Shown: positions 15,935 through 64,000 of the stretch, one piece after another
Layout of the letters: each line of letters opens with the position of its first letter
How positions within the stretch are numbered: the first letter of the stretch is position 1
NCBI RefSeq assembly: GCF_055900595.2
Contig: NZ_JBVWEU010000003.1
From: a plasmid
Strand: one strand, 5' to 3'
DNA: 64,000 bases
Translations under genes and position numbers: made by a program
Notes under the pieces: model-generated
Told to the model about the DNA's origin: nothing
The model's input: only the letters and a program-made list of their open reading frames with translations
Databases searched by the model: none

Positions 15935-16015
15935 ATATTGAAGATAACAAGATAACAAGATAACAAGATAACAAGATAACAAGATAACAAGGTGTTATCT
16001 TGTTATCTCAAGGTG
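15935..16015. repeat. Iteron array: tandem 8-bp AAGATAAC units (about 6-7 copies) plus inverted GGTGTTATCTTGTTATC copies, downstream of the par operon
   Basis: Direct read of the sequence; a related array lies upstream at 17065-17120. Confidence 0.6.
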
Positions 16016-16949: not shown

Positions 16950-17120
16950 CATATTAAGTTGTTAAGTTAACAACTTAATATTGCCATCTGAACGCGAATC
17001 ATGCAATTATTTTTGTTATATTAACAACTTAACAAGTTATTAAGTATTTGATTTATAGATTAATTAATATAACAAGATAACAAGACAACAAGATAACAAG
17101 ATAACAAGATAACAATATTA
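16950..17120. promoter_or_regulatory. par promoter/operator region with palindromes (AAGTTGTTAAGTTAACAACTTAA) and upstream AAGATAAC iterons
   Basis: Read from sequence immediately upstream of the parA start. Confidence 0.5.
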
Positions 17121-38198: not shown

Positions 38199-40499
38199 TC
38201 AGTATTTTTCGTCAGTTGTTGGTTGTGCTCCACATGATTTCTGGGGATGATCATTATTTATTGTCTGCGATTTATTATTTTCAGCGACCGGTAACAGTAT
38301 CTCCAGGGGGAGCAGGGTATTCAGAATCGCCTTCACTGAAGGTATATCTTCAGGACCGGAGTGTTCCTCTTCCGGACGATTCAGTGTGATATAACATACC
38401 CGGCGTTCTTCCCTGGTTGTGTTATTGATAGTGTGCACAGCCTTTTTCCACAGTTCGTTTGCCCGGGATTCGATATCTGTATCATATTGCGGAAGCAGAT
38501 CCAGTGATGTCTGCGCTGTTGCCAACCGGCGCTGGAATGTATCAATGATACGGTAAGGCTCTGTACGGTTTTTACGACGTTTACGGGATGGTTTTGCTGT
38601 CAGTACACCAATAATGCTGCTGACATGCTCCGGTGTGGGAAAACGGCGCTGCACTGTCCTGGGGACAAGACGGCGGAGACGTTCCAGTCGGGGGGCTTCA
38701 ACAGAGATATAACGGTTGATGACCACTGGATCACTGTCGCAACTTTTTTCGCTGTCCGGAATATACACAGAGGCTGACGGCACCACATCCCCCTGGAAAA
38801 CGGTAAAGAATTCACCGGCATTCAGTTTGATTAAATCCTGCACGTTGATTTTGCTTTCCATCTGGATTGTGATCTGGTTACCGTCCACCCAGGACTCTCC
38901 CATCACACCATCGTGGCGCTGCAGGCTGCCCATTCTGGCGCGGGCCTCTTCACCGGCGGCATTTTTCACCGTCCTTGCTGTTTTGTCGTCACTGACAATG
39001 CGTCCGGCGAATTTGGTGCCGGCGTTCTGCATCAGCGTGGCGGTGTTGGTGGCAGAAGTCTGCCCTTCGATTCGCTCCTGATCCTGCGCCGTCATTATCA
39101 GGGAGAACTCCAGTGAACGTACCTGGGTGGCCTCCACTGCAATGCGGTCCGTGTAGTAGGCACCGACTTCGTCAAGGATACAGATATAGGGGAAGCGGCC
39201 TTTGTATTTTTTGACTTCCAGGGTCTGTGCATCTGTGCCTTCCAGGCGGTAGCCCAGGTCACGGGCGAGGATCATGCTCTGCTGGGTGATGAACATACGA
39301 CCGAGTGCCGACGTGGTATGGGCTGATGTGTCCAGTGCGGGGATCATCACAATCAGAATTCGGTCGCTGTGGATACTGTCGCGAATATCGATGTCGCCGG
39401 CATCTGCCGCAAAGACGTCCCCGAAGGTTTCGGCAAAGGTTGTGAACGTTTCCGAGAACTGACCGGAGAGATAAGCATGCTGTTTACGGGGCTCCTCAGT
39501 CCAGGCTGACGGCGTTCTCACCAGTGACATATCGAATCCCGGGACATCCTGCAGGTAGTTTCGCAGTGGTGCGATAGCTTCTTCCGGCCACTGGTCATCA
39601 AGGCCACGGCAATAGAGTTTTGCCATCCCTTCCAGCGTCATATGTTCCCGTAACATATGCAGGGACATGGTTTTACCTTCCCGGACGCACCAGAATTTTG
39701 TGCCAAAGACCAGGGCCTTGTTCATGGCTATCGCCCGTGACTGCCATTCACCGCCCTGAACGTTCTGGGGCAGCATGGACTGCATGGTTTCGGCGGTGAA
39801 GGCTTCGGTGCTGAATGCGAACGGGTTCCAGGTGTTTGACTGTGGGCGGGATTTATCGCCACTCTGAATGACTTCACTGCGGGATTTTCCGCCGTTCATG
39901 AAGTTGATGACCTCGATATCATCCTCCCGGCCAAAACGTCGGGAGAGATACCAGATTGTCCTCGTGGTATCGTTCTGTGCCTTTCCGTCAACAAAGGTAA
40001 AGCCTCTTCCCCAGCAGAGCGGGTTGAGCAGCCAGGCAAAGGTGGTTTCTGTTTTACCGCCACCGGTGGTGGAAAAAAATATGATATGCCGGGTGAGGTC
40101 ATCCATGCTCAGCCAGAGCTCACGACCGATATCGTTGATACGGCGGTAACCGACATAAAAAATCCCCCGTGCGGGGGATGTTTCATCTGCTTCATACTGA
40201 AACAGGGTAGGCCAGAAGCTGAAGAGGCTTCGCCTGACCTTTCTGTCCTGGGAGGGGTCATCAAGGCTGAGCGTCATGGGCATACGCAGGGGGCATCGCC
40301 AGCGTTGCAGCGTGAATATCACGGAGGTGACCAGGGTGAACAGCAGACAGACAGGAAGGGCCAGTGGCCATATCAGGGCCGTAATGATACTGCCAGCCAG
40401 ACACAGACCAATGATGTTCAGGTTGTGCAGTGCATTCCACAGCGGGTTTCCCCAGGCCGTGCGGTGTATGAGGTCAGGATTAACGTGATGCTGGCTCAT
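38199..40499 (-). CDS. trbC: TrbC-like conjugal transfer protein (membrane-anchored ATPase-type)
   Basis: 766 aa; N-terminal transmembrane helices then Walker A STTGGGKTE; last gene of a trbA-trbB-trbC array convergent on oriT. Confidence 0.75.
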   Translation of the reverse strand: MSQHHVNPDLIHRTAWGNPLWNALHNLNIIGLCLAGSIITALIWPLALPVCLLFTLVTSVIFTLQRWRCPLRMPMTLSLDDPSQDRKVRRSLFSFWPTLFQYEADETSPARGIFYVGYRRINDIGRELWLSMDDLTRHIIFFSTTGGGKTETTFAWLLNPLCWGRGFTFVDGKAQNDTTRTIWYLSRRFGREDDIEVINFMNGGKSRSEVIQSGDKSRPQSNTWNPFAFSTEAFTAETMQSMLPQNVQGGEWQSRAIAMNKALVFGTKFWCVREGKTMSLHMLREHMTLEGMAKLYCRGLDDQWPEEAIAPLRNYLQDVPGFDMSLVRTPSAWTEEPRKQHAYLSGQFSETFTTFAETFGDVFAADAGDIDIRDSIHSDRILIVMIPALDTSAHTTSALGRMFITQQSMILARDLGYRLEGTDAQTLEVKKYKGRFPYICILDEVGAYYTDRIAVEATQVRSLEFSLIMTAQDQERIEGQTSATNTATLMQNAGTKFAGRIVSDDKTARTVKNAAGEEARARMGSLQRHDGVMGESWVDGNQITIQMESKINVQDLIKLNAGEFFTVFQGDVVPSASVYIPDSEKSCDSDPVVINRYISVEAPRLERLRRLVPRTVQRRFPTPEHVSSIIGVLTAKPSRKRRKNRTEPYRIIDTFQRRLATAQTSLDLLPQYDTDIESRANELWKKAVHTINNTTREERRVCYITLNRPEEEHSGPEDIPSVKAILNTLLPLEILLPVAENNKSQTINNDHPQKSCGAQPTTDEKY

Positions 40500-41604
40500 T
40501 GTGATTATCCTCGGTATCTGTGGCTTTCAGGAACAGGCTGACGGTAGTGGCGTCTTTCAGGATGCCGGACGGCAGGTGCCAGCCGGTATCGGATAACACC
40601 CATGGGGTACCGCCAAAACCGAACTGGCGGAAAGCCTGGTTATTGACATCGATGGCAGCACGAGCAGCGGTCAGACACTTTTCATCCGGTGCAGCCGGTG
40701 CATCGACGGTGGGTGCCATACCACCGTCTGCGGAATACAGCTGATGCCATCCGGTCGCCCGTTTTTGTGCGTCCGGTTCACACAGCAGTGGCGCAGTCCG
40801 GTTTGTGCTGGCCTCTCCGCCGATTACGGAGACCGGATAAATCACCACGCTGAATTCCCGGGCCAGTTGCTTAAGCGCGGGCTCCAGAAGACGGCAGTTG
40901 ATGCATGCGGGGTCAAGGAAGGCGTAGAGTGTGCGTTCATGACCAGTGGAGAGATTAATGGTGAACATACCCCGGTCCGCGTTGCGTTTAAGTACTGTGG
41001 ACAGATTACGGCGGGCCTCAGCGGCCTGAACGTGTTGTTCTTCCGTCACTGCCGTCGGGGCGGGGGCAGAAGAAGGTTCCTGCTGTGTGGGAGCCGGGCG
41101 GGCCGGGATGCTGTTAACATGATGTTCCGTATGTGGGCGTGGTGTCTCTGTGTCGGTTACTGGTTCAGCTCTCCATTCCTGAGATGTAGGGTAAGCCAGC
41201 GTGGAAGGGGGCTCTGCCTTCATCCAGTGGTAACCTGCAACTGTCGCCGGCAGAGCAATTCCGGCGATAAAGCCACACATCAGTGTCCGCCAGAAGCCAT
41301 ATTTCCGGGAGGGATGTTTTCCTTTTCCGGCATATTCGGCATCCAGGCAGGCATCAATCGCTGAGAGCATTCTGCCGATGTGATGTCCGGGACGTTCTGC
41401 ATCAACGGTATCAACAAGCACCGTTTCGGTTATTTCGCGAAAAGGGGAACTGAAGGACAGGTGCATCAGCCTGTTATTACGGTTAATCAGTGCGCCCAGT
41501 TCTGTTACCGGCAGGATGGCAATCACCTCCCGATTACCGTCAGGGTACAGGGCGGTCAGGGACAGGTGTTTATTATTCAGTGTTGCAGTGTAGTGGATGG
41601 TCAT
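40480..41604 (-). CDS. trbB: TrbB-like thiol-disulfide isomerase (DsbC-like)
   Basis: 374 aa with a thioredoxin-type CxxC (DPACINC) in the C-terminal half. Confidence 0.7.
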   Translation of the reverse strand: MTIHYTATLNNKHLSLTALYPDGNREVIAILPVTELGALINRNNRLMHLSFSSPFREITETVLVDTVDAERPGHHIGRMLSAIDACLDAEYAGKGKHPSRKYGFWRTLMCGFIAGIALPATVAGYHWMKAEPPSTLAYPTSQEWRAEPVTDTETPRPHTEHHVNSIPARPAPTQQEPSSAPAPTAVTEEQHVQAAEARRNLSTVLKRNADRGMFTINLSTGHERTLYAFLDPACINCRLLEPALKQLAREFSVVIYPVSVIGGEASTNRTAPLLCEPDAQKRATGWHQLYSADGGMAPTVDAPAAPDEKCLTAARAAIDVNNQAFRQFGFGGTPWVLSDTGWHLPSGILKDATTVSLFLKATDTEDNHNEPASR

Positions 41605-42962
41605 TGTTCTTTTTCCTTGTCGGCGGGATCCTGTTTTTCGGTGGTTTCGGTGGTTTCGGTGGTTTCGGTGGTTTCGGTGGTTTCGGTGGTTTCGGTGGTT
41701 TCGGTGGTTTCGGTGGTTTCGGTGGTTTCGGTGGTTTCGGTGGTTTCACCAGTGTCAGTGTCTTCGTCGTTATCATGGCGGCGGGGTATCACGTCATCCG
41801 TGAGTGACCAGCGGGTCCTGATCTGACGTTTACGATCGCGATCTGGCTGAGGTTCGTCCCATATCAGGCCCAGCCCCAGCATGTCCCGTCGAAGCCCTTC
41901 AATGGCCTCTTCCACACAGGGTTCCGGGCAGGGGAGGCCGAGACGGCTGGCTTCATTTTCTGCCCGGGCAACGGCCACCACGCCGGCCCCTTCGATGAAG
42001 CCTTTTGTGGTGTTTGCCCGGTGAAGGGCATAGAAGAGCGTCCGGTCAACGCCCTTGAGCCACAGCCAGTTCGGAGGCGTCAGGCGCAAATCATGTGCGT
42101 AAAGCCAGACCAGACCGCTGCGAACGTAACGGTGCTGCCTGAGCCACTTTTGTGCGCCTTCTGTTTTGATGACCCGGATAAAGGCGTTTCTGGCCAGTGA
42201 ATACACCGGCGTGCTGAAACGCCCCTGGTCCCGTTTACTTTTGAGCCTGCAGGAGAGATTGAGGTTGTTCATCAGGGCTACCGCTGCTTTCCGGTCACCG
42301 AGGAAGAACTGCAGGCCAAAGATGGCAAAGAGCGCTTTTTCATGTGGGGCCATGTCTTTCCAGCTGGTCAGTGGTTGCCCCAGTTGCGCCATGAAGCACT
42401 GGCGTGTGGACGCAACATCGAGCTGCATGTTGCGGATAAGGTTGTTCTGCTCCACAAAGGCTTCGGGGGTTAGTGCGACACGGCGCTCGGGACGTTTTTG
42501 TCCGTGGAAGAGTCTGTTGTTGTCTCCATCAGCCAGAACGGGGGCGATCGCCGGTGACAGAGCTGAAAAAATATGGGGCAGTGTGTGGATATTCAGTGGC
42601 CTGCGGGTAAAACGGGGCTGGGCCGGATGGTGAAACCACATCCACAGAAAGCCGAATGTCATGGGAAGCAGAATCAACCAGAGGATCCCCACTGTCCGGG
42701 ACATAACATCCAGCCACTGGCTGAAAGTGATGGTTGCCGCGTTGTTAGCAGTGATGGCCAGCAGGTTGTAACGGGGGGCGGCAAAGTTGTGAAAGGGCCC
42801 CCAGTCAATCATGCCCCACAGTGTGTGCAGGATCAGGCAGGAGGCGAAGACGATTTCAGGTAAAAAGCGCCAGATGATAATCGCAAAGAGCAGGCATATG
42901 GCACCGACGATATACCATATAGCCATTGGATCTTCGGCGGCAGACGTCTGTTGGTAAGACAC
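41601..42962 (-). CDS. trbA: TrbA-like membrane protein with C-terminal (ETT)n repeat
   Basis: 453 aa; multiple transmembrane helices; the C-terminus is encoded by tandem 9-bp repeats. Confidence 0.7.
   Translation of the reverse strand: MSYQQTSAAEDPMAIWYIVGAICLLFAIIIWRFLPEIVFASCLILHTLWGMIDWGPFHNFAAPRYNLLAITANNAATITFSQWLDVMSRTVGILWLILLPMTFGFLWMWFHHPAQPRFTRRPLNIHTLPHIFSALSPAIAPVLADGDNNRLFHGQKRPERRVALTPEAFVEQNNLIRNMQLDVASTRQCFMAQLGQPLTSWKDMAPHEKALFAIFGLQFFLGDRKAAVALMNNLNLSCRLKSKRDQGRFSTPVYSLARNAFIRVIKTEGAQKWLRQHRYVRSGLVWLYAHDLRLTPPNWLWLKGVDRTLFYALHRANTTKGFIEGAGVVAVARAENEASRLGLPCPEPCVEEAIEGLRRDMLGLGLIWDEPQPDRDRKRQIRTRWSLTDDVIPRRHDNDEDTDTGETTETTETTETTETTETTETTETTETTETTETTETTEKQDPADKEKEQ
41637..41755. 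repeat. Tandem 9-bp repeat GGTGGTTTC, about 13 copies (in-frame, encodes Glu-Thr-Thr repeats at the TrbA C-terminus)
   Basis: Direct read of the sequence; on the coding strand GAA-ACC-ACC. Confidence 0.9.
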
Positions 42963-58611: not shown

Positions 58612-59307
58612 TCAGATTCCTGCTGCGGCGTTACGGGAAACCATCTGGCTGATTTCCATGCCGCCGGGTTTGATTCGTGGGTCCACGCGCCGGACAGTGA
58701 TTTCAAAGGTGAAGGCCTGCTCGGGGCGGGTGCTGGTCTGACCGACCAGACGCATCCTGACCGGATACTGGAATTTCCAGAACCAGATGCCGTTTTCCAT
58801 CTGGCCCTGATTCACCAGCGTGCCGGCCCCGATAGTGGTTGTGAGGTTAAATTTCTCCTTTTTAATGGTGTCCAGAATGTTGGAGGCCTGAAGAGCATTC
58901 ACATAGCCGGCAAAACCGGCTTCGGAAAAGCGTGGAGCCAGTGTCGTGATTTGTTTCCTGTAGTGGACAAAATCCAGATTAAAAGCTTCGCTCAGCGTCA
59001 TGCTGCCAAACGTCATGACGTCGCTCTGACTCCAGGCTGGCTGACTGGTGGGGGCCAGGCGGACCAGCCGGCCATTGTCGGTGGCAAAGTATTCGCGCGT
59101 CACGTCGGTGGCATGCCAGTACTGTATGATATTGCCGGTCAGACTGATGACGAGAGCTGCGCTGCTACACAGCAAGGCCCTGACCAGTCCGGGAACCAGT
59201 GCGGCCCGTTGTTCTGACTGTGCGATGGTTCTGAGCACGGGGTTATAAATATCTCCGCTGTTATCCGCTTCCGGTGAGACAGGGGAGGTGGGTTGTGCTT
59301 CGCTCAT
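58612..59307 (-). CDS. traM: TraM-like protein (DotI/IcmL-type)
   Basis: 231 aa with an N-terminal transmembrane helix; assigned by position and size. Confidence 0.6.
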   Translation of the reverse strand: MSEAQPTSPVSPEADNSGDIYNPVLRTIAQSEQRAALVPGLVRALLCSSAALVISLTGNIIQYWHATDVTREYFATDNGRLVRLAPTSQPAWSQSDVMTFGSMTLSEAFNLDFVHYRKQITTLAPRFSEAGFAGYVNALQASNILDTIKKEKFNLTTTIGAGTLVNQGQMENGIWFWKFQYPVRMRLVGQTSTRPEQAFTFEITVRRVDPRIKPGGMEISQMVSRNAAAGI

Positions 59308-59318
59308 GGTGCTCCTGT

Positions 59319-59669
59319 TCAGAGGTTATAGTCTTTCCAGGGGTCGATATTCCCCGGCAGATGTTCATTCACCCGATCCACGACGGCATCACAGACCTGG
59401 TTTTCCAGGTCGCGGAGGAGTTTGTCCAGGCTGGGGAACTGCGGAAGAGTGATGCTGACGTCCTTGATGCGGGACAGGCAGGACTGCAGGGAAGAGGCGA
59501 CGTCATTCTCCCGCTGTGACCATGCCTGGCTGGCTGTGCGCGCCCGCTCCCAGGCGGCTCTGCTGCCGGCTTCGGCAGCGGCCCCCGCCCGGCAGGTGGC
59601 GGCACCTGCCACCGGTGATGCCAGGGTGATGCCGGTCAGTATGACCAGCAGCGTTTTTTTCATGTTCAT
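59319..59669 (-). CDS. traL: TraL-like small periplasmic protein
   Basis: Start taken at MNMKKTLLVILTGITLASPVAGAA (signal peptide); about 116 aa. Confidence 0.45.
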   Translation of the reverse strand: MNMKKTLLVILTGITLASPVAGAATCRAGAAAEAGSRAAWERARTASQAWSQRENDVASSLQSCLSRIKDVSITLPQFPSLDKLLRDLENQVCDAVVDRVNEHLPGNIDPWKDYNL

Positions 59670-59685
59670 GGTCGTCCTTACCGGC

Positions 59686-62600
59686 TCATCGGCCGGGGCT
59701 GTGAGATTGTGCCTGTTGCAGAGTTTTTTCCTGCCTGTCCTCCGCCTTTTGGCTGTCAGACCACTCTTTCCAGGTCTGCTCAAAACCCAGAGAGCGGAAA
59801 AGCTTGTCCGGCTGCTCTTCCGGTTTATGGATGGCGGCAAACAACGGCGTATCCTGTTGCTTCAGGTGAAACTGCATCATTTGTGGGGCCGGACGCTGAT
59901 GAGTATTCTCATCGTGGTTGACAGCTTCACCGTAGCCGGCAAACTGCAGACCGTTATCCGTCAGTGCATTGATGACCAGCTGACGGTTGTTTGTTGTCGG
60001 GGTGGCCAGTGCCGGGTAGAGGGTGCCGTTCAGACGGACCACTCCCTGCAGATGCTCATCTGCGCTGTGGACCAGCAGAAGATTCAACTGACGATTGTCC
60101 TTATCGGCGGAGGCGACGGCAGGAATCAGTTCATCGGGGGCTTTACCAGCGAGGGGGAGTCGCATTGATTGATCCTGAGGTTCTGATGCAGGTTGCCTGT
60201 CTTCACCAATGTACAGATTATTGGGAGGATTTTTGGGGGAACGAACTTCCTGCATTATCTGTGGCCAGTGTTGCTGCATTTGTGACATTACCTGACTGAA
60301 TGTTTTCATCGGAAATTCCAGGATATGCTGACCAGCATGAGGAAGGTCATTATCGACGGTAATGCCGTTACTGACAGGAGTCATGGCCCAGATATTTCGC
60401 ACCCATTCCGGTTTGCCCGGTGATGAAGGTGATCTCTCCCGGGCCTGCAATGTCAGCGTGACGGGGTCGCCTTTCTGGTGGTTTTTGACCAGTTCTTCCA
60501 GGCCTTTTCCCCAGTATTCCCGTTTGCCACTGCGGTTGGTGAGCTCCACAAAAAAGCAGCGCCCTTTTCCGGGCGCATACTCTTTTTCTCCGTAGTTTGT
60601 CAGGACGGCAGTCACACTTTCACCGGGGCTGAGCTTGCCGGGCGGCTCTTCCTCCGGTGTGTCGGGTTGCTGCGGCTGTGCACTGACAGGGGCTTTTTCT
60701 GGCGCTGACGACGGGGCGGCTGGTTGTTCCGGTCTGTCGGCCCGGGGGGCTTCAGCTTTTGCCGTGACCGGCGCTTCCGGATGCGGTGTTTCAGCCGTAC
60801 TGCCTGCTGTTTGTTCAGCCTCTGCCTTCGGTGACACAGGGGGTTCCGGTTGTGCCATTGTTGTTTCTTCCGGTGACTGGCGGTTGAGTTCCGGCGTGGG
60901 TCTGTGGGTGACAATGGCATCATGCACCATCTCTTTTTCCTTGCGGAGTTTTTCCAGTGCTGCCCTCTGGGCCGGGAGTTTCATGCGAACCTTGATGTCG
61001 TATTCGACAATCAGCTGCATGGCTTTTTGTTTAAAGGCATCACTGCCGGTCAGCTCGATAACGCCGCCATAGAAGTTGGTGGCCACAGCAAGGGCAGCCA
61101 GAACCTTTTTGTCATCCGCGCTGGCACCATCCACCATTTCGAGACAATAGAGTCTGTCCAGGAAGGCTGGTTCGCCGTCAACACGGAAGAGCGCTGTCCT
61201 GTCGGGAAACTCTTCGTGCTCAAGATTTTTAATAATCTCGTCCAGGTTGTGCCGCTGCGGACTGTCGGGACGGCGGGGCGCAAAGATAATCGTGTCCGGT
61301 TCCGCTGACGATGTGTCTTCCGGGCTGTTTTCCGGTGGTGATGGTGGTGCGACCTCCTCTGTTGCTGTTTCAGCCTCCGTGGGCTTTTTCTCCTGAATAA
61401 CGGAAGGTTCTGAGGTGCGTGATTTCCCACCGGTCAGAAAACGGCGCAGACGGCTGAAAAGCGATGGCGTTTCAGGGGGGGCTGCTTCATTCGCTGTGCT
61501 GGTCTCAGTGGCGGACACAAGACGCTCTTCCTGCAGTTTATCTTCAGCCGTCGGTTCAGCGGTGGCCTGCCGGACTGGCTGAGTTTCTGCTGGTTCAGAA
61601 GGTGAGGCTGTTTCTGCTGTGCCGGTGTTGTGAACAGTGGCAGCAACCGTGGCATCGGCATTGAGCTCCTCAGGCGGTGCGTCACGGTTGTTATCGGGGA
61701 CGGCAGAGGCACTCTTTTCACTGGTATCCGTTGCAGACAGAACATCCTCTTCCTGCGGTTTATTTTCTGCCGTTGCTTCAGGGGTTGCCTGCTGAACAGG
61801 CTCAGTCCCGGCAGGTTCAGAAGGTGAGGCTGTTTCTGTTGTATCGGTGTGGTGAGCCGTGGTCATCACAGTGGCATCAGCGTTGAGGTCTTCCGCAAAT
61901 GCGCTCCAGTCGTCAGCGCTGGCCATGGAGACCTGCAGTTGTTCTTCAGTCTGCGTTGTGGTGGTGTGCTGTGTCCCGGTCGCGTCGGAGACGGAGGTTT
62001 CCGGTGTGTCGTCACCTGGGGAGAGCTCTTCTGCCTGTACGCTCTGGTTGTCAGCGGTGGTGGCAGAGGCATTTTTTTCACCGGTATCAGCGGCAGGTAT
62101 AACGCTCTCCTGAGGTTTGTCTTCTGCTGTTGGTTCAGGGGAGGACTTCTGAACAGGCTGAATCTCTGCAGGTTCAGGAAGCGTTCCTGTTTCTGCTGTG
62201 TTGGTGTTGTGAGCGGTGTCTGTACCTGTGGCGTCTGTATTGAGGTCTTCCTGGTCGCCAGCGGTAGCCGCAGAGGTATTCTCTGTGCCGGTATCAGCGG
62301 CAGACGCAATATTCTCCAGTGGTTTATCCGGGGATAACGTCTCCGTAGTTACTGACTGCAGGGATGCATAGGCGGCATAGTCATCTTCATATGCCTGGTT
62401 TTCTGTCTCTTCAGTGTGGATGTCATAAGGCGTATCCGGTGTCGCCAGCACCGTTTCCGGGGCTGTGCTCTGTTTGTTTTCAGGGGACATTTGTGGCTTC
62501 TCATCTTTTACCGGTGTGAATATCAGGTTGCCGATCACGACAGCCTCACGGTGGTCGGCAGTGTCACTGTTGGGTGTGGGGATACCGATATGTTTTAACT

Positions 62601-63717
62601 GTGCGTTCATGACATGCTGAAAGTCGTCCCGTCCCCGGCTGGCGTCCAGGTCATTGAAATCGGTCAGTCCCTGTGCTTTTTCCTCCTCCGTAAAGGCCGG
62701 AATAATGACTTCGCCATTCGTGACTTCTGCGGCTTTTGTTGCACTAAAAACCCCCTTGTTAATTTCCCGTTGATGATCGTTGTCGGCACAGAAGACAAAG
62801 GGGCTGTCAGTCCAGATTTGGCGGGCATTTTCTGCCACGGCAATCATATTGCCGGCATCAACTGTCATCAGAACCGGAAGGCCGGTGGCTTCGTGCAGGG
62901 AGGCGGCAGTAGCGTAACCTTCCGCAAATAACAGGGGACGGCCATTTTCCGGGGTTCCGAAGGTGAACCAGTTGCCGGTTTTCTCGGAGTCTTTCAGAAT
63001 GCGGGCATCCTTCCCGCCGGTGACCGGAATACGCTGGTACGAACGTATTTCCCCCCGGCCGTTGCTGAAGGGAATAACCAGCTCATTTTTATTGTTCAGC
63101 CGCACGCCAGGCGCGGCCCGGATGCCCTTGCGCGTCAGGTATTCATGTGCTGTTGCCTGTGGCAACCCGTTAATATAGGAGCGGGCATACCGGGCCTGTT
63201 TGTTGTACTGTTGCTGCAGTTTACGTGCGTTATCATCGCGCTGTTGCTGAGCGAATGCCCGCAGATGCAGTCTGGCCAGAGGATCGTGTTGTTCTCCGCC
63301 GGAAAATACCCAGTTTGTGGGACTGTCATCGGCGCTCCGGTAGTCGCGGTACCAGCCAGCGGGGCGCCCATCAAGATAGGCTTTGTATGCGCCACTTTTG
63401 GCCCCTTTTTTGTCATCCCGGGTGGCGACTCTGTGTATGGCGCCATCCATCTGTGGCAATCCCTGAATAACCAGCCCGGCGTTTTCCAGGACCTGAGCAA
63501 ATTCGGTGACCGGATCGCCGGCATCCATCGACAGTTCCTGCGGCCGGGGTAACCAGCGCTCCAGCAGAGAAAGTTCGGTACCTGCCCGGGCATACCAGAG
63601 TTTTTTTTCTGGATCCCATGCGACAGCTTTGCGGCCATTTAACGGGGGTACTGCATTTTTTACGGCTTCTGTCTCCTCAGGCGGGACAGCAAGCCAGGTA
63701 CGATATCTGGACTTCAT
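59686..63717 (-). CDS. Conjugative DNA primase (Sog/TraC-like) with a central acidic tandem-repeat linker
   Basis: 1343 aa; N-terminal Toprim-like primase motifs (LLFAEGYATAASLHEATGLPVLMTVDAGN…FCADNDHQ); the middle contains about three ~70-90-aa repeats. Confidence 0.75.
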   Translation of the reverse strand: MKSRYRTWLAVPPEETEAVKNAVPPLNGRKAVAWDPEKKLWYARAGTELSLLERWLPRPQELSMDAGDPVTEFAQVLENAGLVIQGLPQMDGAIHRVATRDDKKGAKSGAYKAYLDGRPAGWYRDYRSADDSPTNWVFSGGEQHDPLARLHLRAFAQQQRDDNARKLQQQYNKQARYARSYINGLPQATAHEYLTRKGIRAAPGVRLNNKNELVIPFSNGRGEIRSYQRIPVTGGKDARILKDSEKTGNWFTFGTPENGRPLLFAEGYATAASLHEATGLPVLMTVDAGNMIAVAENARQIWTDSPFVFCADNDHQREINKGVFSATKAAEVTNGEVIIPAFTEEEKAQGLTDFNDLDASRGRDDFQHVMNAQLKHIGIPTPNSDTADHREAVVIGNLIFTPVKDEKPQMSPENKQSTAPETVLATPDTPYDIHTEETENQAYEDDYAAYASLQSVTTETLSPDKPLENIASAADTGTENTSAATAGDQEDLNTDATGTDTAHNTNTAETGTLPEPAEIQPVQKSSPEPTAEDKPQESVIPAADTGEKNASATTADNQSVQAEELSPGDDTPETSVSDATGTQHTTTTQTEEQLQVSMASADDWSAFAEDLNADATVMTTAHHTDTTETASPSEPAGTEPVQQATPEATAENKPQEEDVLSATDTSEKSASAVPDNNRDAPPEELNADATVAATVHNTGTAETASPSEPAETQPVRQATAEPTAEDKLQEERLVSATETSTANEAAPPETPSLFSRLRRFLTGGKSRTSEPSVIQEKKPTEAETATEEVAPPSPPENSPEDTSSAEPDTIIFAPRRPDSPQRHNLDEIIKNLEHEEFPDRTALFRVDGEPAFLDRLYCLEMVDGASADDKKVLAALAVATNFYGGVIELTGSDAFKQKAMQLIVEYDIKVRMKLPAQRAALEKLRKEKEMVHDAIVTHRPTPELNRQSPEETTMAQPEPPVSPKAEAEQTAGSTAETPHPEAPVTAKAEAPRADRPEQPAAPSSAPEKAPVSAQPQQPDTPEEEPPGKLSPGESVTAVLTNYGEKEYAPGKGRCFFVELTNRSGKREYWGKGLEELVKNHQKGDPVTLTLQARERSPSSPGKPEWVRNIWAMTPVSNGITVDNDLPHAGQHILEFPMKTFSQVMSQMQQHWPQIMQEVRSPKNPPNNLYIGEDRQPASEPQDQSMRLPLAGKAPDELIPAVASADKDNRQLNLLLVHSADEHLQGVVRLNGTLYPALATPTTNNRQLVINALTDNGLQFAGYGEAVNHDENTHQRPAPQMMQFHLKQQDTPLFAAIHKPEEQPDKLFRSLGFEQTWKEWSDSQKAEDRQEKTLQQAQSHSPGR
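61400..62350. repeat. Tandem ~210-270-bp repeats inside the primase gene (about 3 copies)
   Basis: Repeated DNA blocks seen directly; the track also shows mutually similar plus-strand ORFs (61464-61664 and 61677-61886) as a by-product. Confidence 0.7.
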
Positions 63718-63780
63718 GTCGTTCTCCGGGGATTAAAGATGAGGGCGTTGTGATACGCCGGGATGATGGACAAAAGAGGG

Positions 63781-64000
63781 CTATTCTGGTCCGTGCCATT
63801 CACGGGGTAATTCTGTGCGGTGTCGGTACCACCAGGGACGTCCTGATGCCTGCTTACCCTGAAGCAGGCTGTACAGACGTATACAGAGGGTGCGGACTGT
63901 CCAGCCGGAATATCCCAGGAGCATAAAAAACAGCAGAATGCCGCTGCACACCCAGAATGTTGTTTTTGACGGATACGGAAACAACAGCAGGTAAATCATG
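63781..64000 (-). CDS. Partial membrane protein (TraK-like?), 5' end probably beyond window
   Basis: Hydrophobic ORF reaching the window edge on the minus strand; assigned by position only. Confidence 0.3.
   Translation of the reverse strand, partial: MIYLLLFPYPSKTTFWVCSGILLFFMLLGYSGWTVRTLCIRLYSLLQGKQASGRPWWYRHRTELPREWHGPE

Follow-up and report, generated by a model that had tools for sequence, protein, structure and literature searches.

Conjugation machines have few natural protein substrates, and Sog, the primase of the IncI1 plasmids R64 and ColIb-P9, is among them. Both its primase activity and its transfer into recipients are known only for ColIb-P9 and R64, and hundreds of copies are exported independently of DNA and thought to coat the transferred strand (PMC8406263; PMC6112013). 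R64 produces a SogL of 1255 aa and a SogS of 844 aa, which implies a SogS start at M412, and a second in-frame product is possible for Pri of the IncM plasmid pCTX-M3 (PMC6112013).

The window analysed here is a stretch of 64,000 nt from a plasmid (NCBI RefSeq assembly GCF_055900595.2, contig NZ_JBVWEU010000003.1). The 1343-aa primase ORF, found exactly as the first-pass annotation had described it, encodes the Sog-type primase of a conjugative plasmid of the IncK2/Z, MPF_I type. Its folded domains are 59-77% identical to the annotated SogL of pCH42, and its C-terminal 536 aa alone show 59% identity to annotated SogL by BLASTP. In the closest plasmid the gene lies between traK/traJ and traL/traM/traN/traO; the order traJ/traK, sog, traL/M/N/O is common to pPK8275-82kb and pCH42, and the position in the tra cluster is the same in R64/ColIb-P9. 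A search of NCBIfam gave no match for the primase, and a sequence search of the PDB with Sog returned nothing meaningful. The features of the locus, in gene order, are as follows.

59686-63717, minus strand: sog-type primase coding sequence (SogL equivalent), 1343-aa ORF with ATG start
63547-63702, minus strand: DUF5710 domain, aa 6-57 (Pfam PF18974, 34.9 bits, cut-off 26.5)
62626-62928, minus strand: Toprim primase domain, aa 264-364 (Pfam Toprim_3, 28.5 bits, cut-off 27.2)
61261-62559, minus strand: predicted disordered acidic linker, aa 387-819 (AF2 pLDDT <50 except for one helix)
62488-62490, minus strand: putative in-frame internal start codon M410 of the SogS equivalent (934 aa), by homology with R64
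62359-62394, minus strand: acidic-aromatic motif AYEDDYAAYASL, aa 442-453, upstream of the repeats
62122-62328, minus strand: repeat unit U1, aa 464-532 (69 aa)
61765-62121, minus strand: repeat unit U2, aa 533-651 (119 aa), made of a head, about 49 extra residues with a W motif, and a tail
61879-61938, minus strand: conserved island LQVSMASADDWSAFAEDLNA, aa 594-613, inside the extra segment of U2
61543-61764, minus strand: repeat unit U3, aa 652-725 (74 aa)
61462-61542, minus strand: partial repeat unit U4, aa 726-752, head only
60943-61185, minus strand: polyvalent-protein-associated LPD7 domain, aa 845-925 (Pfam PF18821, 37.2 bits, cut-off 27)
60673-60927, minus strand: second low-complexity P/A/E-rich segment, aa 931-1015, outside the repeat array
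59689-60672, minus strand: conserved C-terminal region, aa 1016-1343, 62% identical to R64-type Sog

The domain plan is that of IncI1 Sog, with DUF5710, a Toprim domain with EGYATA, a long acidic disordered linker, LPD7 and a conserved C-terminal region, and the identity to R64/ColIb-P9 Sog is 77% for the N-terminal domain, 72% for LPD7 and 62% for the C-terminal region. It should be noted that the Toprim_3 match was obtained with the N-terminal segment scanned alone and is absent from the full-length scan at E<=0.1. Within this domain the motif FAEGYATAASL lies at about aa 264-274; EGYATA itself (aa 266-271) is reportedly the primase motif, and its residues A, E, G, Y, T and A are invariant among the 32 aligned family members. 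The 'DaN-' motif, defined for DnaG-like Toprim domains of mobile elements (PMC5512222), is seen here as DFND in the stretch LTDFNDLD. The C-terminal region is conserved in 131 representative proteins (E<=1e-10), and the low-complexity segment preceding it aligns with the R64 type at only 45% identity and with 19 gaps.

The two proteins differ in the linker. That of the IncI1 protein is 346 aa long, only about 24% identical to the linker found here, and without a comparable tandem repeat (its best self-diagonal reaches 8/20, the one here 16/20), and the array of 74-aa units is specific to IncK/IncK2/Z-type alleles. A search of the available literature found no earlier description of repeats in sog of IncK-type plasmids.

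The first-pass annotation had proposed about three tandem repeats in the primase gene, produced by duplication at the DNA level and located between the Toprim domain and the C-terminal part. We confirmed about three old, diverged repeats, and Toprim_3 and LPD7 do flank them. The array covers aa 464-752 (window 61462-62328) and consists of units of 69, 119 and 74 aa followed by a 27-aa partial fourth; U2 is an ordinary unit, with a 27-aa head and a 43-aa tail, that has the additional ~49 residues between the two. A DNA repeat search detected direct repeats at 61472-62328 with periods of 222 nt and 357-360 nt and 72-78% identity, and a protein self-dot-plot revealed the internal periodicity, its strongest diagonals being at offsets of 74, 193, 119 and 69 aa. 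Pairwise local alignments of U1, U2 and U3 scored 142-161 against 41-47 +/- 7 for 300 composition-preserving protein shuffles (z = 13-17), while U3 against the partial U4 gave z = 5.1 by protein alignment against shuffles. Ungapped DNA identity between the units is 73-80%, with the partial U4 about 80% identical to the heads of the other units. The units arose by in-frame duplication of DNA. As the dS between units is 0.56-0.65, the duplications are old rather than recent. Tandem Repeats Finder (min_score 30, positions 59000-64000) found nothing, which is explained by the age of the units, their identity of about 75% and an indel of about 135 nt in one of them; this blank is a limit of sensitivity and no refutation. 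Shorter ORFs (84-162 aa) that overlap 61434-62337 in a different frame or on the opposite strand were dismissed as by-products of biased composition, since the host ORF is long, conserved and has a dN/dS below 1 in its own frame.

The linker was also described as acidic, rich in Thr, Glu and Pro, and disordered, which agrees with our data, Ala being abundant as well. The array contains 17% T, 16.6% A, 12.5% E, 8.7% P, 8.3% S and 8% D, with a net charge of -49 and a pI of 4.05; for the linker at aa 396-807 (412 aa) the net charge is -62, the pI likewise 4.05, and S/T/P/A/E/Q make up 67%. Scanned alone against Pfam at E<=10, the linker matched no family. AF2 places aa 387-819 below pLDDT 50 between confidently folded Toprim and LPD7 domains, both flanks at 85-95 serving as internal controls (85-95 for Toprim, 85-92 for aa 824-932 around LPD7), and as a measure of disorder this is a proxy based on a shallow alignment of 32 sequences.

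To place the linker in its family we compared 27 Toprim + LPD7 proteins: the one described here, the R64 type and 25 cluster representatives at 50% identity. Pri of pCTX-M3 and the other MPF_I Toprim-LPD7 primases have the same domain order and an acidic linker, shorter or longer than the one here (107-724 aa), and the linker is net acidic in 27/27, with charges from -10 to -64. Unrelated tandem repeats, differing in sequence and period (14, 17, 30, 32, 39 and 78 aa), are present in the linkers of P0124, P0126, P0146, P0166 and P0199; P0153 is a possible further case with a weaker self-match. The family linker has acquired unrelated repeats at least five further times. The array itself is real but otherwise a fairly ordinary case of a disordered linker, in an already known protein family, that has expanded by repeats.

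It had further been suggested that copy number could differ between plasmids, and comparison of primase lengths bears this out. Intact alleles are 1338, 1341, 1343, 1353, 1365, 1458 and 1463 aa long and all are in frame, their differences being multiples of 3 nt. Across the 60 nearest plasmids its most common span is 4062 nt, seen in 45, followed by 4392 nt in 5, 4032 nt in 4, 4026 nt in 3 and 4098 nt in 1. Alleles of three and of four units both exist, relatives 97% identical to the present allele carrying a fourth unit of 120 aa, and other alleles vary in a 12-aa mini-repeat. Long repeats are a classic cause of collapsed or expanded assemblies, and two near relatives span 4061 and 4063 nt, which would break the frame, so we considered whether the repeats or their copy-number differences could be short-read assembly artefacts. 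Against this, units only 73-80% identical in DNA are unambiguous for assemblers, the identical 1343-aa protein (P0006) occurs on 28 contigs from several sources, and the three-unit and the four-unit form are both found in many complete plasmid records that are independent of one another, one four-unit cluster having 160 member sequences. The extra unit moreover carries substitutions of its own (94% identical to its neighbour). With diverged units, recurrent forms and substitutions private to the extra unit, we rejected an artefact, to which we assign next to no probability. The differences in sog length are hence real and no annotation errors, and can be used to type plasmids of the IncK/IncK2/Z kinds, carriers of blaCMY-2 and similar genes in poultry.

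The four-unit alleles also suggest how the array changes. In pPK8275-82kb the first ~60 nt of the extra 120-aa unit match the head of U3 (NKPQEEDVLSATDTSEKSASA, identical to U3) while the remainder matches U2, a junction that is the product predicted by unequal crossing-over; a second four-unit mosaic, in P0002/P0028, has the same U3-head/U2 junction. The tail of unit 2 in the present allele is 89% identical to the tail of unit 3 in L006 but only 72% to that of unit 2 in L002, so units change position between alleles. We propose that the array grows, shrinks and is reshuffled through unequal homologous recombination and gene conversion between units, also those of different alleles. In-frame gain and loss of units by unequal recombination is shared with other length-polymorphic repeats in disordered bacterial proteins, as are relaxed sequence constraint and a retained compositional bias, but unlike that general class the Sog units, at 69-120 aa and 73-80% DNA identity, are long and diverged, which points to rare recombination events and not to frequent slippage. 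A slippage-type phase-variable repeat was likewise rejected, with units of 207-360 nt, 73-80% identical, and no frame-shifting on/off switch.

Constraint on the array was estimated from dN/dS. The folded domains have a ratio of 0.1-0.2 and the repeats one of 0.5-0.6; comparing paralogous units with one another gives 0.33-0.51. The sequence constraint is thus relaxed in the repeats, yet values of 0.3-0.6 are not neutral, so some constraint beyond composition exists. The raised dN/dS could be taken to mean that the linker is neutral filler, a low-complexity insertion tolerated between independent folds, with its repeats and polymorphism as by-products of recombination. This would also fit the nearly seven-fold span of linker length (107-724 aa), the unconserved linker sequence across the family and the repeated origin of unrelated repeats within it. 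We nevertheless consider it unlikely, since all 27 family members have the linker and in none of them is it basic, dN/dS stays well under 1 whether alleles or paralogous units are compared, and two motifs are invariant though their surroundings have diverged to 66-78% identity between alleles.

The first of these motifs, AYEDDYAAYASL, is invariant in the 9/9 IncK-type alleles examined, while identity in the pre-repeat segment around it (aa 396-463) drops to 75% when the most diverged allele is compared. Motifs resembling it occur in other family linkers by a pattern set post hoc; the broader pattern [DE]..[YFW]xx[YFW]xx[LM...], chosen after seeing the data and hence to be read as a lead, is found in 9/27 family linkers against about 1 expected from shuffles. 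The second motif, ADDWSAFAEDL, is the sole conserved island within the linker interior in comparison with the R64 type, P0123 and P0131, and R64/ColIb-P9 Sog shares it as DWxxFxxEL. The smoothed identity of LQVSMASADDWSAFAEDLNA reaches 0.58 against a linker mean of 0.20, the sole helix that AF2 predicts in the linker (aa 601-613, segment residues 347-359) falls within it, and four-unit alleles contain the island twice. As it holds both the sole conserved interior island and the sole predicted helix, the extra segment of U2 is not filler.

A shorter product may begin inside the linker. M410 aligns with M412 of R64-type SogL and is preceded by the purine-rich gatGAGAAG; the codon is kept as ATG or GTG (GTG in L006) in all alleles, with a purine-rich stretch upstream, and Met occupies this alignment column in 18/32 family members. 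We infer from this alignment that the short isoform SogS starts at M410, in which case the array would also be the N-terminal tail of SogS and not just a linker. The Shine-Dalgarno-like sequence before M410 is weak (GAGAAG against GAGGA in the R64 type), which makes the amount of SogS from this allele uncertain.

We favour, as probable though far from certain, the reading that the repeats are an old in-frame amplification in a disordered acidic region serving as a flexible charged spacer or tail. Such a spacer would join the Toprim domain to LPD7 and the C-terminal part in SogL and form the N-terminal tail of SogS. Its most likely function would be to keep the two halves of this abundantly exported protein, which associates with ssDNA, separate and soluble through its negative charge and flexibility, while the ADDWSAFAEDL helical motif might be offered to a putative partner. 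Selection would hold the array in frame, acidic and unstructured and constrain its sequence weakly, and unit number would mainly set spacer length and, in four-unit alleles, also the copy number of the motif. In an IncI1 plasmid, transfer is lost wherever a transposon lands in the sogS part but survives insertions in the primase-only part (PMC4288162); for the linker such data are uninformative, as insertions there also truncate the essential C-terminal part. The map now available, with unit boundaries, natural three- and four-unit alleles, a single conserved interior helical motif and a likely SogS start, provides ready natural variants and targets for point mutation with which the function of the segment can be tested.

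The first-pass annotation also considered that the disordered linker might matter for transport of the primase into recipients, and a putative role of the array in carrying Sog there is plausible. One specific form of this idea is that the Glu-rich array is a multivalent secretion signal read by the DotM homologue TrbA in the type IVB coupling complex, much as the Glu-rich E-block of Legionella Dot/Icm effectors binds basic patches of DotM, more units giving more export. The plasmid has an MPF_I / type IVB transfer system, its TrbA (window 41601-42962) is matched by solved DotM structures (E = 1.7e-7), and DotM binds acidic Glu-rich peptides with sub-micromolar affinity if their overall pI is low (PMC5802825). 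Here the array has its pI of 4.05 and 12.5% Glu, the acidic linker is present in 27/27 family members, and export of Sog is very abundant and DNA-independent (PMC8406263). Array and Dot/Icm E-block are alike in being acidic, Glu-containing and unstructured, in substrates of type IVB systems with a DotM homologue. In acidity the array corresponds to an E-block (pI 4.05, 12.5% E plus 8% D, charge -49) with its Glu dispersed. Membership was rejected, as the E-block is defined as C-terminal (PMC5802825) and the array is internal (aa 464-752 of 1343). We hold a secretion signal of this kind to be quite improbable. The array ends some 590 and begins some 880 residues from the C-terminus, its Glu residues are scattered among Thr, Ala and Pro and not clustered, and of the Glu-peptide-binding residues of DotM, TrbA keeps the R314 equivalent only. 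Comparing the basic binding patches R196/R197, R217 and R314/R315, and taking chain and residue numbering to differ by 145, we found VDRT in TrbA against VDRR in DotM at R314, and D203, next to K202, at the R217 position; loss of such residues in distant homologues is noted in the DotM paper (PMC5802825).

As a long shot, we speculate that the array and the DDWxxFxxDL helix might together form a multivalent internal Sog export module read by a TrbA/DotM-like, TrbC/DotL-like type IVB coupling complex, in which the number of units (three or four) and of W helices (one or two) would tune export and the TrbA (TTE)n tail would compete or regulate. That tail, a hypervariable acidic (TTE)n stretch, is a feature of the TrbA encoded by this same plasmid.

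By its sequence, the right end of the window is part of an IncI-complex conjugative plasmid: positions 39001-64000 (25 kb) show ~98% identity to IncK2/Z, MOBP, MPF_I plasmids, with the gene order trbC-trbB-trbA ... traY-traO-traN-traM-traL-sog-traK-traJ. The sog-type primase gene and its Pfam domains, all over cut-off, are as follows.

59686..63717, minus strand: sog-type primase ORF, 1343 aa, in the position of the annotated sogL of pCH42
aa 6-57, minus strand: DUF5710
aa 264-364, minus strand: Toprim_3 (28.5 bits vs cut-off 27.2)
aa 845-925, minus strand: LPD7

The Toprim_3 match was obtained when the N-terminal part of the primase was scanned by itself. The EGYATA and DFND ('DaN-') motifs are both found in the protein; the 'DaN-' motif is a feature of mobile-element DnaG-like primases. 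SogL of pCH42 shares 59% identity with the window protein across the C-terminal 536 aa, and per domain the identity is 77% (N-terminal), 72% (LPD7) and 62% (C-terminal region). The identical 1343-aa protein is found on many public contigs (P0003-P0011 in our protein searches, P0006 representing 28 contigs). The nearest complete plasmid is 97.7% identical, yet its sog allele is longer.

The first-pass annotation had placed about three long tandem repeats at 61400-62350 within this primase, and direct-repeat search, self-dot-plot and shuffle tests all found them to be real. Across 61472-62328 the direct repeats fall into families spaced 222 and 357-360 nt apart, with 72-78% identity, and the strongest diagonals of the protein-level dot-plot lie at offsets 74, 193, 119 and 69 aa. 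Unit borders were set by cutting at the recurrent [DN]K[PL][QL]E motif.

62122-62328, minus strand: unit U1, aa 464-532, 69 aa
61765-62121, minus strand: unit U2, aa 533-651, 119 aa
61543-61764, minus strand: unit U3, aa 652-725, 74 aa
61462-61542, minus strand: partial unit U4p, head only, aa 726-752, 27 aa

Pairwise local alignment of U1-U3 gave scores of 142-161 vs 41-47 +/- 7 for composition-preserving shuffles (z = 13-17). The same test gave z = 5.1 for U3 against U4p, and alignment against shuffles detected no unit in aa 406-463 directly upstream of the array (z <= 1.5). The units share 73-80% DNA identity with a dS of 0.56-0.65, hence the duplications are old; as paralogues they show a dN/dS of 0.33-0.51. 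Tandem Repeats Finder missed the array, as expected for units so diverged and with a ~135-nt indel in U2. Abundant residues in the array are T (17%), A (16.6%), E (12.5%), P (8.7%), S (8.3%) and D (8%); its net charge is -49 and its pI 4.05. No comparable repeat was seen in the linker of the R64 type, the IncI1 comparison protein. In itself the array is an ordinary sort of feature.

Unit number was compared among ten homologous genes from annotated plasmids and four further proteins. It had been proposed that copy number could differ between plasmids, and by primase length both 3-unit (1338, 1341, 1343, 1353 and 1365 aa) and 4-unit alleles (1458 and 1463 aa) were found, so the structural reading of the first-pass annotation was right on this point as well. 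The extra 120-aa unit of pPK8275-82kb (allele L001) begins with ~60 nt of U3-type head, which encode NKPQEEDVLSATDTSEKSASA just as U3 does, and thereafter matches U2, with 94% identity overall to the neighbouring U2; this is exactly what unequal crossing-over between U3 and U2 of separate molecules would be expected to produce. The substitutions in its U2-like part are those of another allele, of the type of L003 (from pEGY2), suggesting that different alleles have recombined. The junction of L001 recurs in another 4-unit mosaic, represented by P0002 (160 sequences in its cluster) and P0028, where the downstream partner differs and is of the L002/L004 type. The alleles also differ in a 12-aa mini-repeat, ADTGEENASVAT, which occurs once in L004, twice in L002 and L008 and three times in L005. 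In the 60 nearest PLSDB records sog spans 4062 nt (n=45), 4392 nt (n=5), 4032 nt (n=4), 4026 nt (n=3) or 4098 nt (n=1), and is out of frame in two (4061 and 4063 nt), one of them without an annotated gene. Judging from the unit tails, units shift position from allele to allele; the unit 2 tail of the window protein has 89% identity with the L006 third tail and only 72% with the L002 second tail. No other part of the Sog protein varies as much as the array, which has 77% identity to L002 between flanks of 99.7-100%, 66% to L006 where the domains reach 91-100%, and a dN/dS of 0.5-0.6 vs 0.1-0.2 in the folded domains. An assembly artefact as source of the repeats or of the unit differences was excluded for practical purposes.

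Mosaicism in sog extends beyond the repeats. Its C-terminal 328 aa (aa 1016-1343, window 59689-60672) show 79% identity to pEGY2 with a dS of 0.46, the remainder of the protein being 96-100% identical, which points to a C-terminal module swapped between alleles by recombination. A second low-complexity segment, rich in Pro/Ala/Glu, lies between LPD7 and the C-terminal region (aa 931-1015, window 60673-60927), with 45% identity and 19 gaps against R64-type Sog and a weak internal 19-aa periodicity.

AlphaFold2 was given aa 255-935 and an alignment of 32 family sequences, the well-folded Toprim (aa 255-384, pLDDT 85-95) and LPD7 (aa 824-932, pLDDT 85-92) flanks acting as internal positive controls. 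Between them, aa 387-819 had pLDDT <50 and were without secondary structure except for one helix, aa 601-613 DDWSAFAEDLNAD, in agreement with the earlier description of a disordered linker between Toprim and a domain on the C-terminal side. Residues S/T/P/A/E/Q make up 67% and hydrophobic residues 13% of aa 396-807, with a net charge of -62. Both pLDDT and composition thus support the prediction that aa 387-819 are intrinsically disordered.

In R64, sog gives SogL (1255 aa) and SogS (844 aa) through internal in-frame initiation (PMC6112013). From these lengths, SogS begins at M412 in R64-type Sog (TEEKT before MTPTE), which aligns with M410 in the window (DEKPQ before MSPEN; 62488-62490); most alleles have ATG as this codon, and L006 has GTG. 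Upstream of this putative start are purine-rich Glu/Lys codons (GAGAAG in the window, GAGGA in the R64 type). Most of 32 aligned family members have a Met directly after E-x-x-T at or near this point, 18 of the 32 in exactly the same alignment column. From the alignment of M410 with the SogS start, the acidic array probably serves both as N-terminal tail of SogS and as linker between the domains of SogL. Tn-seq of the IncI1 plasmid pESBL found all parts of sogS to be needed for transfer, while insertions are tolerated in the primase part specific to SogL (PMC4288162). Uninformative on the linker, this shows that the downstream frame must stay intact, in agreement with the strictly in-frame polymorphism.

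An exhaustive HMMER family search with aa 410-1343 returned 225 representative proteins, 131 of them at E<=1e-10. In a survey of 27 proteins in which both Toprim and LPD7 could be recognised, the segment between the two is 107-724 aa long and net acidic in every case (-10 to -64). Five of these linkers, all from distant Sog-family primases, have clear tandem repeats of their own that share no sequence relationship with the window array (P0124, ~78 aa; P0126, 32 aa; P0146, 14 aa; P0166, 17 aa; P0199, 30 aa), thus spacer repeat expansion is recurrent and convergent; P0153 has a weaker ~39-aa self-match. The idea that the repeats are purely neutral filler is unlikely, as the linker is retained and acidic in all 27 of these proteins and dN/dS is <1. 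Folded insertions, e.g. helix-turn-helix-like 'GIGQTSVYRILK' segments, were seen in the Toprim-LPD7 linkers of P0151, P0160, P0168 and P0199.

Scanned against three distant relatives (the R64 type, P0123 and P0131), the window linker had a mean identity of 0.20 and only two conserved islands: aa 396-411, which is the primase-domain end and putative SogS start, and aa 594-613 LQVSMASADDWSAFAEDLNA. The latter lies within the extra segment of U2, coincides with the sole predicted linker helix, is invariant across all IncK-type alleles and is doubled in 4-unit alleles. As it is conserved, predicted to be helical and invariant, the U2 'insert' is more probably a functional motif of ancestral origin, with the repeats having expanded around it. 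Upstream of the array, aa 442-453 form another invariant motif, AYEDDYAAYASL, and acidic-aromatic motifs like it, a pattern picked post hoc, are present in 9 of the 27 linkers vs ~1 expected. That Sog proteins form a family, come in two isoforms and are exported was already known; in the searchable literature we found no description of the array, the 3- and 4-unit alleles or the conserved helix within U2 (W helix).

Sog proteins are exported to recipients by the hundred in a DNA-independent process, and are believed to travel with the transferred strand (PMC8406263, PMC6112013). The best-supported reading of the array is a flexible, strongly acidic spacer or tail, kept for its length, charge and lack of structure. 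It would be reshaped through unequal recombination and bear one or two short putative binding motifs; being unfolded and acidic it may be suited to passage through the secretion channel, and might prevent Sog from aggregating with itself or on DNA. A role of the linker in getting the primase into recipients, as raised in the first-pass annotation, is plausible. More specifically, the array could be an E-block-like signal recognised by TrbA, the plasmid's DotM homologue (PMC5802825). This idea is attractive but unlikely, since the array lacks the C-terminal location that defines E-blocks, and most of the residues with which DotM binds are not conserved in TrbA.

TrbA, of the coupling complex (ORF 41601-42962, minus strand), has a perfect 9-nt tandem repeat at its end (41636-41747, ACCACCGAA x12), encoding TTE x12 and hence an acidic Thr/Glu tail. 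The repeat is single copy in the closest plasmid, and related plasmids match a 401-nt query over 302 to 401 nt in 9-nt steps, equal to ~1-12 copies; these lengths mark it as a truly hypervariable in-frame microsatellite within a component of a type IV secretion system. The TrbB-like ORF (trbB / DsbC-family, 40480-41604, minus strand) has a P/T/E/A-rich low-complexity segment, …EPVTDTETPRPHTEHHVNSIPARPAPTQQEPSSAPAPTAVTEEQ…, between its N-terminal part and the DsbC-like domain, and alongside the other acidic spacers it follows that acidic T/E/P-rich spacers recur in several transfer proteins of this plasmid. Elsewhere on the plasmid, two 8-nt tandem arrays lie ~1.1 kb apart (15941-15991, AAGATAAC x6.4; 17069-17115, ATAACAAG x5.9), their units being one 8-nt sequence in different phase.
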